Positions 20,762-30,327 of a DNA stretch of 64,000 bases are shown in pieces. Both the position numbers and the translations under genes were made by a program. Within the stretch, counting starts at the first letter, position 1. Each line of letters opens with the position of its first letter. Source of the stretch: Escherichia coli (GTDB taxonomy: Bacteria > Pseudomonadota > Gammaproteobacteria > Enterobacterales > Enterobacteriaceae); NCBI RefSeq assembly GCF_003334765.1, contig NZ_QOWT01000001.1, one strand, 5' to 3'. The notes beneath the pieces are model-generated. The model did not search any database, was not told the origin of the DNA, and saw only the letters and a program-made list of their open reading frames with translations.

Positions 20762-20872
20762 CACCGTCTGACGTGCTACGCCTGTCAGGCCTATTCGACT
20801 CCTGCAATGTATTGAATTTGCATAGTTTTATAGGTCGAATAAGGCGTTCACGCCGCATCCGGCGTGAACAAA
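20762..20872. repeat. Composite REP/BIME-type repeat (two REP-like palindromes flanking a conserved spacer)
   Basis: Contains gcctgtcaggcctat and taggtcgaataaggcgttcacgccgcatccggcgtgaaca; the spacer cctgcaatgtattgaatttgcatagtttta recurs nearly identically at 27949-27978. Confidence 0.7.
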
Positions 20873-20908
20873 TTACTCTTTTTCGCACAATCCAATATGT
20901 GCAAATTA

Positions 20909-27046: not shown

Positions 27047-27808
<762 letters not shown>

Positions 27809-27814
27809 GTGAGG

Positions 27815-28015
27815 ATGTTTGCCAGATGCGGCGTGAACCTTGCATCCGGCGATTAATTCCTACAAAGGCGGCGTAACTGCGCCGCTTGAGACTGCTGACA
27901 AACGCAAAACTGCCTGATGCGCTTCGCTTATCAGGCCTACGTGTTTCCTGCAATATATTGAATTTGCACAGTTTTGTAGGCCGGATAAGGCGTTCACGCC
28001 GCATCCGGCATAAAC
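27815..28015. repeat. Cluster of REP/BIME-type palindromic repeats between chbG and katE
   Basis: Three REP-like units (gccagatgcggcgtgaaccttgcatccggc; tgcctgatgcgcttcgcttatcaggcctac; gtaggccggataaggcgttcacgccgcatccggca) plus the conserved spacer shared with 20795-20830. Confidence 0.75.
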
Positions 28016-28038
28016 AAAGCGCACTATGTAAATCATTT

Positions 28039-28062
28039 GAGGCGGCGCAATTGCGCCGCCTC
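28039..28062 (-). terminator. Perfect 11-bp-stem hairpin immediately 3' of katE
   Basis: gaggcggcgca-at-tgcgccgcctc; sits just after the katE stop codon. No strong U-tract. Confidence 0.45.
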
Positions 28063-28065
28063 CCA

Positions 28066-30327
28066 TCAGGCAGGAATTTTGTCAATCTTAGGAATGCGTG
28101 ACCACACGCGGTGTGCTGCCATCAGCGTTAGCAGTTCATCCATAAAACTACCGTCAGCGCTGTCAGCTTCCACAATCCCTTCTTCACCCTGGTCAGCGAC
28201 CTTGATTGTTGCTTTAAACTTGCGCGCGTCACCCGCCAGCGCAATCGGTTTAAGGTGTTTGTAGGCTTCCATCAGGTAGTAGTTGGCATCGCCGTTGTCA
28301 GCGATATCCGCGATATTGCCGCAAGGGACAATGACCGCATCGACCGTCAGCGAAGGTGCACCGGCAAAGGTAGCGGCTATAGGCAACACCGTACCGTCAT
28401 CCGCAGTCACTTCACCCATTCGGGAGTAGAGCAGTTTGGCATGAACGCCTTTGGCCTTCAGCGCCTTGAGAATGGCCAGAAGGTCTGCCGATCTCACTTC
28501 ATCATTAAGTAAAATCGCTACCACGCGACCTTTCACATCACCGTCAGGAATGGCGTACAAACTTAAGGATGGATCCTTTTTCAGACCGTTGACGTCCGGA
28601 GGTGGGGTGATATTCAGCTGGTCGTCAGTCAGTTCGATACCGAGATTTTTCGCCACCGCCTGGGCCAGAGTGAGATCAATATGCGCCAGCTGGTCAACAA
28701 CGCGCTCACGAATATACGGACGAACGACTTTGCTTAACTCAAAACTGAAACCATCGACAATATGGCGCTGCTCAAATGGCGTCTGACTTAGCCAGAACAG
28801 ACGCGGATGGGAATAATATTCGCCAAACGATGGGCTGCGCTCGCGAACTTTATTGCCTTCCACGCGCTCCTGGTATGATTCAAAACCGCCGCGTTTCGGC
28901 CCCGGCGGTGTTTCGCGCGGCCAGTTATCGTTAATCGAGTTCGGTTCGTAATTCGCCGGGTTAGTGTCGATCCCCATGCGATGCATGCCGTCACGCTGGA
29001 AATTATGGTAAGGGCAGGTCGGACGGTTAATCGGAATCTCATGGAAATTCGGCCCACCAAGACGACTGATTTGTGTATCGGTATAGGAGAACAAACGTCC
29101 CTGCAACAGCGGATCGTTGGTGAAGTCCAGTCCCGGCACGATATGCCCAGGATGGAAAGCCGCCTGTTCGTTTTCAGCAAAGAAGTTATCCGGGTTGCGA
29201 TTGAGCACCATTTTGCCGACACGCTGAACGGGCACCAGTTCTTCCGGGATAAGTTTGGTTGGATCGAGAAGATCGAAGTCGAACTTGAATTCATCTTCTT
29301 CAGGAATCAACTGGAAGCCCAGTTCGTATTCCGGAAAATCGCCTGCTTCAATGGCTTCCCACAACTCGCGGCGGTGGAAGTCCGGGTCACGTCCGGTGAG
29401 TTTTTGTGCTTCATCCCAAACGAGTGAGGCTTTACCTGCCAGTGGTTTCCAGTGGAAACGTACAAACGTTGCCTTCCCTTCGGCATTAATCAGGCGGAAG
29501 GTGTGAATACCGAAGCCTTCCATGGTGCGGTAACTGCGGGGGATGCCGCGATCCGACATCGCCCACATCACGTTGTGCAGAGTTTCAGGTTGCAGAGAAA
29601 CATAATCCCAGAAAGTATCGTGGGCACTTTGCCCTTGTGGAATTGCCCAGTGCGGTTCTGGTTTTACCGCATGAACAAAATCGGGGAATTTATGCGCATC
29701 CTGGATAAAGAAGATTGGCGTGTTATTGCCAACGAGGTCAAAAATACCCTCTTCGGTATAGAACTTGGTGGCAAAGCCACGGATATCACGCACGGTATCA
29801 GCAGAGCCAGCACCACCCTGAACGGTAGAGAAACGTACAAATACTGGGGTGATTTTGTTCGGATCTGAGAGGAAATCCGCTTTGGTAATATCGCTTAAGC
29901 TTTTATATGGCTGGAAATAACCGTGAGCGGCTGATCCGCGTGCATGAACAATACGTTCCGGAATGCGCTCATGGTCAAAGTGGGTGATTTTCTCGCGCAG
30001 AATAAAATCTTCCAGCAGCGTTGGACCACGGCTACCGGCACGCAGTGAGTTTTGATCGTCGGCGATGCGCACGCCCTGATTAGTGGTCAGCGCATAATTT
30101 TCACTGCCTTTGCGTACGTCTTCCAGAGAATTAAGTTTTTCGTTACGCGTATCAGGGGCTTTCAGGCTCCCTGGGGCGGTAGGTTGTGCACCTGGCGGTG
30201 TTGGTTCAGCCGCTGGACGATGAGAGCCGTCCTCAGGTGCCAGTGAGTCCATCCCCGGTTTCGCTTCGCTGGAATCGTGTAGTGGTGACTGGTGCTGATG
30301 TGGGTTCTTTTCGTTATGTTGCGACAT
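28066..30327 (-). CDS. katE: Catalase HPII (large-subunit monofunctional catalase)
   Basis: 753 aa; [21 protein letters not shown]-terminus and catalase core motifs. Confidence 0.97.

Follow-up and report, generated by a model that had tools for sequence, protein, structure and literature searches.

The chbG–katE intergenic cluster of Escherichia coli: a composite of REP and BIME-1 palindromes that probably serves as the 3′ UTR of katE

Introduction

The genes chbG and katE of Escherichia coli face each other across a short intergenic gap rich in palindromes, which raises the question of what these palindromes are and which role they play for the genes on either side. The katE gene is expressed from a sigma-S-dependent promoter. 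The gap was studied within a stretch of 64,000 nucleotides (hereafter, the window). The window belongs to a K-12-like E. coli, and many E. coli chromosomes match a 501-bp query centred on the cluster with 100% identity. A first-pass annotation of the window, made from the sequence alone, described the gap as a dense cluster of REP/BIME elements with an independent perfect hairpin next to katE, and suggested that such clusters can stabilise the upstream mRNA and bind gyrase or IHF. Here, the composition of the cluster, its variation among strains and its position relative to the mapped RNA 3′ end are described, and the possible roles of the cluster are compared.

Results

Layout of the intergenic gap

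The chbG gene (chitin disaccharide deacetylase; 27059–27808, plus strand) and the katE gene (catalase HPII; 28066–30327, minus strand) were located using the list of open reading frames and the annotation in identical E. coli records. According to the same list, chbG ends with a TAA codon (27806–27808, plus strand) and katE with a TGA codon (28066–28068, minus strand). The genes are convergent, and the gap between them (27809–28065) is 257 bp long. Along the plus strand, it contains REP-1, a GC hairpin H1, REP-2, a 35-nt linker, REP-3, 28 nt of unique sequence and a second GC hairpin, H2. It combines repetitive extragenic palindromes of a sort ordinary in E. coli, namely a solitary, decayed y-REP, a BIME-1 and the GC hairpins H1 and H2, which are related to each other but are not REPs.

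All three REPs are imperfect palindromes of about 30–40 nt with a mismatch in the stem. They are extragenic, being located in a convergent gap, and highly repeated, with the query matching a median of at least 40 places per genome in 5,426 of 5,426 genomes. The reading of the region between chbG and katE as a REP/BIME cluster is supported, and the three REP-like palindromes and the shared spacer reported earlier correspond to REP-1, REP-2, REP-3 and the segment 27941–27975. The assertion that they fill nearly the whole gap was overstated. The REPs and the linker occupy 133 of the 257 nt (52%), or about 70% if both hairpins are counted, and H1 is an additional GC hairpin absent from the earlier list. 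The RefSeq record of MG1655 carries no REP features at this gap. REPs and BIME-1 are long-known families, so the cluster is of an already known kind, and the site behaves as the current literature predicts.

The BIME-1 element

REP-2 (27909–27940, plus strand; TGCCTGATGCGCTTCGCTTATCAGGCCTAC) and REP-3 (27976–28010, minus strand; GTAGGCCGGATAAGGCGTTCACGCCGCATCCGGCA) were both found by the repeat search. REP-2 is a short-loop, z1-like REP of the z type with the foot GGCCTAC on the right, and REP-3 is a canonical, near-consensus y-type REP, inverted, with the GTAG foot on the left. The GTAG/CTAC tetranucleotide that is conserved at the REP foot and forms part of the definition of a REP is present in both, as GGCCTAC ends REP-2 (27934–27940) and GTAGGCC starts REP-3 (27976–27982). 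The inner stem of REP-2 is about 7 nt shorter than that of the z2 consensus in the naRNA4 model, which suggests a z1-like rather than a z2 REP. REP-3 matches the y half of the naRNA4 consensus except at one position, and its hairpin has a predicted energy of about −21 kcal/mol on either strand.

The linker between them (27941–27975, no strand assigned) was identified through the Rfam family ES036, which matches at full length at 27933–27975 on the minus strand with 55.5 bits against a gathering score of 37.6. By the published definition, a BIME-1 is a single-copy unit of a z1 REP and an inversely oriented y REP, joined by one long conserved L linker. The element at 27909–27940 and 27976–28010 has this structure, with no tandem repetition. 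It does not have the structure of BIME-2 (z2 and y REPs with a short S linker, in tandem), as the linker is of the L type, the z REP is short-loop and the copy is single.

The second ES036 match of the window, also above the gathering score, is located at 20787–20829 (42.9 bits) and represents the second copy of the shared spacer. It falls on another BIME-1-like element; hence, the ES036 family is in effect a model of the BIME-1 linker. What had been annotated earlier as “copy 1” of the cluster corresponds to 20770–20875, a degenerate BIME-1-like element composed of a decayed z-REP, an L linker and a y-REP. Elsewhere in the window, matches at the Rfam gathering level were obtained for Phe_leader (44918–45042, 75 bits) and STnc540 (48883–49041, 67.4 bits).

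An IHF site is often present in the conserved L linker of the BIME-1 class. The minus strand of the present linker holds ATTCAATATATTG, which agrees with the IHF consensus WATCAANNNNTTR at eight of nine specified positions when compared by eye, so that IHF binding at the linker is plausible. Strong in vivo cleavage by gyrase has been documented for BIME-2 (z2 and y in tandem) and not for BIME-1. Hence, IHF appears to be the more apt half of the earlier proposal of “gyrase or IHF”.

REP-1 and the hairpins H1 and H2

REP-1 (27820–27850, plus strand; TGCCAGATGCGGCGTGAACCTTGCATCCGGC), found by the repeat search and by sequence reading, is a y-type REP with its head on the left, beginning 11 nt past the chbG stop codon. 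Its CCTAC foot is displaced to about 27859–27863 by an 8-nt insertion, GATTAATT, and REP-1 is therefore regarded as a degenerate member of the family. The hairpin of REP-1 is more stable on the katE-sense RNA, where the stem contains a G·U wobble (−18.2 kcal/mol), than on the chbG-sense RNA, where an A·C mismatch stands instead (−14.2 kcal/mol). The adjacent hairpin H1 (27866–27885, no strand assigned; AGGCGGCGTAACTGCGCCGC), also revealed by the repeat search, starts about 57 nt past the chbG stop codon. It is a diverged copy of H2, identical to it at 18 of 20 positions (90%), with hairpin energies of −15.4 kcal/mol on the plus strand and −11.6 kcal/mol on the minus strand.

H2 (28039–28062, no strand assigned; GAGGCGGCGCAATTGCGCCGCCTC) is a perfect 24-nt palindrome with 12-nt arms, located by the repeat search. 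As RNA, it forms a stem of 10 bp with a 4-nt loop, starting 3 nt past the katE stop codon. The palindrome is as perfect as had been reported; however, the stem is not of 11 bp in RNA, and the hairpin stands 3 nt from the stop codon rather than abutting it. Neither is H2 independent, as H1 in the same gap is its paralogue and cryptic Escherichia clades carry a homologue. No other perfect palindrome in the 64-kb window has arms exceeding 8 nt, and 100 shuffled versions of the window yielded no match. At −23.4 kcal/mol on the katE-sense RNA, H2 is also the most stable single hairpin of the gap. A sensitive BLAST search found H2 at the katE locus only, in 2,170 genomes. The possibility that H2 belongs to a dispersed repeat family was rejected, as the matches lie only at katE in strains carrying the long (257-bp) allele of the gap, with H1 in addition.

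Secondary structure and signals of transcription

Folding of both strands had been proposed as a check on the cluster, and strong structure was found. The energy of a 263-nt region was −118.6 kcal/mol on the plus strand (z −7.5) and −118.8 kcal/mol on the minus strand (z −7.1), with none of 200 shuffles folding as well on either strand. A scan of 27500–28400 revealed no sigma-70-like promoter, and hairpin-plus-U-tract terminators were found at 0 sites on either strand of the same region. The tails that follow the hairpins on the katE-sense RNA, AAAUGAUUU after H2 and AAACAUCC after REP-1, are not those of intrinsic terminators. The Rfam model naRNA4 (CssrE) scored 39.7 bits over REP-3 and H2 against a gathering score of 59.5, and the cluster is not assigned to that family.

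The mapped 3′ end of the katE transcript

Supplementary file 1 of Adams et al. (2021) lists a Term-seq RNA 3′ end at MG1655 position 1816378 (+), obtained in LB at an OD600 of 2.0. The position was transferred to the window using the relation w = 28066 − (MG − 1816128), which places it at 27816 on the minus strand, i.e., on the katE strand. The 61-nt flank given for this end, ...GCCGGATGCAAGGTTCACGCCGCATCTGGCAAAC[A]TCCTCACTTA, exactly matches the window from 27866 down to 27806. The end lies 4–5 nt beyond the stem of REP-1 and 8 nt short of the chbG stop codon. It is the sole 3′ end in the MG1655 interval 1816xxx of the curated table and is represented by one entry with a modest read count (1035) from one condition in one study. 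The same table contains no 3′ end at MG1655 18161xx, just past H2. Since the mapped end is at REP-1 and none is at H2, transcription passes through H2, and the whole cluster is probably a 3′ UTR of katE of about 250 nt. Neither the TERMITe supplements nor a published Rho table, which covers the exponential phase only, contains entries for the gap region.

Immediately downstream of REP-1 on the katE-sense RNA, a C-rich, G-poor tract of 80 nt (27746–27825, minus strand) was recognised by base composition. It contains 31 C and 11 G, and the resulting C/G ratio of 2.82 exceeds the 99th percentile (2.33) of 80-nt windows on the same strand. The tract is rut-like and may be regarded as a putative rut site. 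Steady-state ends of Rho-terminated E. coli transcripts are known to lie just past stable stem-loops without U tracts, to which PNPase and RNase II trim the RNA, and rut-like C-rich sequence sits immediately downstream of such protective stem-loops. The katE end fits this pattern, as it follows a REP-1 stem that has no U tract and is succeeded by C-rich, G-poor RNA. The stabilising role for upstream mRNA proposed earlier is backed by these published data, the only 3′ end listed for this region in stationary-phase MG1655 being on the katE strand, just past the REP-1 stem.

Polymorphism of the gap among E. coli strains

The locus was compared in 5,426 complete E. coli genomes. The uninterrupted 257-bp allele is present in 1,931 of them, while 3,242 (about 60%) carry a non-homologous 46-bp allele with one hairpin (AAGGTCAC...GTGACCTT). 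In a further 232 genomes, the long allele bears the insertion sequence IS621 (1,279 bp) in REP-2, and 21 genomes are not accounted for by these three counts. A comparison across strains had been suggested as a check on REP variation at the site, and the existence of long, 46-bp and IS621-bearing forms demonstrates that the arrangement is not identical in all strains. The last codons of katE differ with the allele, reading CCT GCC TGA (then TGG) in the long allele versus CCG GCG TAA in the short allele and in that of the cryptic clades described below, and they encode the same protein. The spelling of the long allele at 28063–28073 creates TGCCTGATG, which reproduces a z-REP head exactly and is complementary to 27910–27919.

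According to the work on bridge RNA, the natural target of IS621 is the 11-nt sequence ATCAGGCCTAC with a CT core, located inside a REP. An exact ATCAGGCCTAC occupies 27930–27940 of the window with the core at 27937–27938, and the core is the point of insertion in the strains that bear the element. REP-2 is a natural landing site for IS621, occupied at this exact site in loci L003, L004 and L013 and empty in the window. The IS621-bearing genomes were counted with a junction query that included 100 nt of unique flank, without which other REP::IS621 junctions reach 80% coverage. Another REP pair of the window (385–470) contains a second exact target at 441–451 on the minus strand.

Some of the IS621-bearing strains (L004, about 2727–2765; L013, about 2991–3030) possess a variant of the L linker, CCAATAAACTGCAATACATTGAATTTATACGACTTT versus GTGTTTCCTGCAATATATTGAATTTGCACAGTTTT, with REP-3 and H2 identical and the flanks otherwise the same. 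The variant may have arisen by gene conversion from another BIME-1 or by recombination between IS621 copies. One more rearrangement was found in L012 (NZ_CP148461.1), where a 40-bp tandem duplication corresponding to 27833–27872 extends the gap to 297 bp; its junctions are in the motif GGCGGCGT, which H1 shares with the loop of REP-1. Little point variation occurs in the long allele, and the H2 stem is spared.

The flanking genes vary to different degrees. In L005 and L011, chbG is far more polymorphic than katE, with 45–74 differences per 809 bp versus 12–13 per 935 bp (28066–29000), and chbG occurs in two forms among E. coli strains, of 750 and 759 nt. A 600-bp tract around the gap in L005 (27630–28230) is identical to K-12 in a chbG background that is 5–9% divergent (5.6% in the strain with this tract). 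The presence of this K-12-identical tract inside a divergent chbG suggests that the long allele moves by recombination.

Alleles of the outgroups

Species-representative genomes were scanned with a pattern of the katE C-terminus. Five loci were found, none of them from E. fergusonii or E. albertii and two of them E. coli contaminant contigs. These two are chbG–katE contigs of 437 bp in a Terrisporobacter petrolearius assembly (L014, short allele) and of 262 bp in an assembly of Desulfosporosinus sp. OT (L015, K-12 allele), and almost certainly represent E. coli contamination of Firmicutes assemblies. The locus L016, about 10% divergent in katE, has a hairpin of the short type with compensatory changes. 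The cryptic Escherichia loci L017 and L018 (10% and 5% divergent) carry a third allele of 139 bp, in which a y-REP just past the chbG stop codon is followed by an L-like linker, an inverted z-REP and GGTGGCGCAGTTGCGCCACC, adjoining the katE stop codon.

The GGTGGCGCAGTTGCGCCACC hairpin of L017 and L018 is a homologue of H2 with one double change of C-G to U-A, and this single compensatory pair among only five sequences does not make the covariation of the H2 stem significant. In each of the three allele classes, a GC hairpin with 9 bp or more begins 3–4 nt past the katE stop codon. REP-1 of K-12 and its left flank next to the chbG stop codon align forward to the y-REP of the clade allele, and the BIME-1 of K-12 aligns to the reverse complement of the clade BIME. 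These alignments weakly suggest that the K-12 allele is a relative of the clade allele that has been rearranged and expanded; the inversion is held weakly because any two BIME-1s in opposite orientation align in this way.

Discussion

The overall best explanation of the cluster, and in our estimation a likely one, is that it is transcribed as the 3′ UTR of katE, which ends at the REP-1 stem-loop as a result of Rho termination and trimming. RNA polymerase starting from the katE promoter would read through H2, the BIME-1 and H1. Termination would most likely be carried out by Rho acting on the C-rich stretch that starts just beyond REP-1, and the REP-1 stem-loop would be left as the stable 3′ end once 3′-to-5′ exonucleases had trimmed the RNA up to it. 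The outcome would be a structured 3′ UTR of about 250 nt, and katE transcription would not extend antisense into chbG. For the chb operon, REP-1 and H1 could play the same role on the opposite strand. The Rho dependence, the exonuclease trimming and any effect on expression at this locus are what we infer. A 2026 preprint describes REPs as terminator-stabilisers of 3′ UTRs, and those located between convergent genes as bidirectional terminators and blocks to degradation. Since 3,242 of the 5,426 genomes do without the cluster, its extra elements are dispensable, and a single hairpin may achieve as much as all of them together.

The stability of H2 allows a different division of labour, in which H2 would be the functional terminator of katE or the main stabiliser of its 3′ end, and the REPs beyond it untranscribed passengers. 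In favour of this are the energy of the hairpin, its start 3 nt past the stop codon, the homologous hairpin with a compensatory change at the same place in two cryptic Escherichia clades and the strong hairpin that stands 3 nt past the stop codon in the non-homologous short allele as well. However, the tail of H2 contains no U tract, the terminator scan was empty, the Term-seq end lies 250 nt downstream at REP-1 with none at 18161xx and the covariation amounts to a single event in five sequences. H2 as an intrinsic terminator is rejected on the lack of a U tract and of a Term-seq 3′ end, and its wider role as terminator or main stabiliser seems improbable. The same position next to the stop codon could have a consequence for translation, if stop-proximal hairpins stall the terminating ribosome and lower protein output, H2 acting on katE and REP-1, 11 nt past its stop codon, on chbG. 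Liang, Rudd and Deutscher (2015) are reported to have found down-regulation of translation by REPs located within 15 nt of the stop codon, and a GC hairpin of at least 9 bp is found 3–4 nt past the katE stop codon in all three allele classes. H2, however, is not a REP, and in a convergent gap this short, a terminator or stabiliser would equally be expected to place a hairpin right after the stop codon; we regard stalling as unlikely, though somewhat less so than the terminator role of H2. A broader reading joins the two questions, with a stop-proximal hairpin selected to tune KatE output and the K-12 allele originating through REPs. Such tuning would act via translation termination and tmRNA or via 3′-end formation. 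The K-12 allele would have arisen from a clade-like element of BIME-1 plus hairpin by REP-mediated (RAYT-type) insertion or rearrangement, an event that would duplicate the hairpin and rewrite the last katE codons synonymously (CCG GCG TAA to CCT GCC TGA) into a REP head. If this were true, the 3′ UTR of a major sigma-S-dependent catalase would vary between E. coli lineages, and its expression would differ measurably; as a whole, we consider this reading about as improbable as termination at H2.

The main role of the cluster could also be sought at the level of DNA, with IHF bound to the L linker and perhaps gyrase to the REPs, which would make it a topological or architectural element between convergent transcription units. 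The linker is canonical (55.5 bits), ATTCAATATATTG is one mismatch from the consensus WATCAANNNNTTR, and y-type REPs are those preferred by gyrase for cleavage. Strong gyrase cleavage, though, is known for BIME-2, to which the cluster does not belong, and the element is absent from most E. coli strains. A DNA-level function is compatible with an RNA-level one; as the main role, it is possible but rather doubtful, and among the alternatives it is the one to be taken most seriously. A discrete small RNA gene, either ES036/CssrF or a two-hairpin RNA like naRNA, is very unlikely. The ES036 match at 27933–27975 (minus strand) is above the gathering score, and a sub-threshold naRNA4 match extends over REP-3 and H2. 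Nevertheless, membership in ES036 does not prove a small RNA gene, because the match is the repeated BIME-1 linker, found a second time on another BIME-1 of the same window, and no promoter-like site was detected in 27500–28400. The naRNA4 score is under the gathering threshold, and an RNA of this kind would derive from decay of the katE 3′ UTR. In recent work, the model naRNA locus itself was found to terminate and stabilise transcripts in their 3′ UTR and not to act as a nucleoid RNA.

The cluster matters little beyond annotation, since it is a classic REP/BIME site of the bacterial genome that has been studied best. What is added is a precise list of parts, the evidence for transcription of the cluster as a katE 3′ UTR that ends at REP-1 and not at H2, and the three-allele polymorphism with the occupancy by IS621. 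The locus unites several published ideas, namely REPs as 3′-end structures of probably Rho-terminated mRNAs, REPs as two-way barriers between convergent genes, differences in REPs between strains as alternative 3′ UTRs of one gene and REPs as docking sites for IS621. Natural alleles with one, three or five hairpins, with or without IS621, would provide a convenient test bed for relating REP content to the expression of katE and chb.

Among known systems, the cluster shares features with the naRNA4/REP325 locus, a BIME-2-type array of y and z2 REPs. REP-3 with H2 resembles the two-hairpin unit of y and z2, the inner stem of H2 resembles that of z2, and TGCCTGATG at the katE stop codon is a z-REP head. 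Unlike z2, H2 has neither the outer stem nor the CTAC foot, and no tandem array is formed. As a target of IS621, an element of the IS110 family with a bridge-RNA recombinase, the REP-2 site is typical and shows no difference from other REP targets, being empty in the window. The resemblance to BIME-1 (RIP/RIB) covers the segment 27909–28010, a single-copy unit in which a z-type and an inversely oriented y-type REP are placed tail to tail, with one long conserved linker bearing an IHF-like site, at the 3′ ends of transcription units. In contrast to BIME-1 as such, the katE cluster is flanked by an extra decayed y-REP and two non-REP GC hairpins, and its orientation is opposite to that of the BIME-1-like element in the same gap of the cryptic Escherichia clades. 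The katE end is also similar to the 3′ ends of those Rho-terminated mRNAs that are protected by REP stem-loops (Newbury 1987; Peters 2012; Dar and Sorek 2018). It differs from them in that the protecting REP is degenerate and comes fifth and last in a series of hairpins, about 250 nt past the stop codon. It shares with them a 3′ end a few nucleotides past a stable stem-loop without a U tract, followed by C-rich, G-poor RNA.
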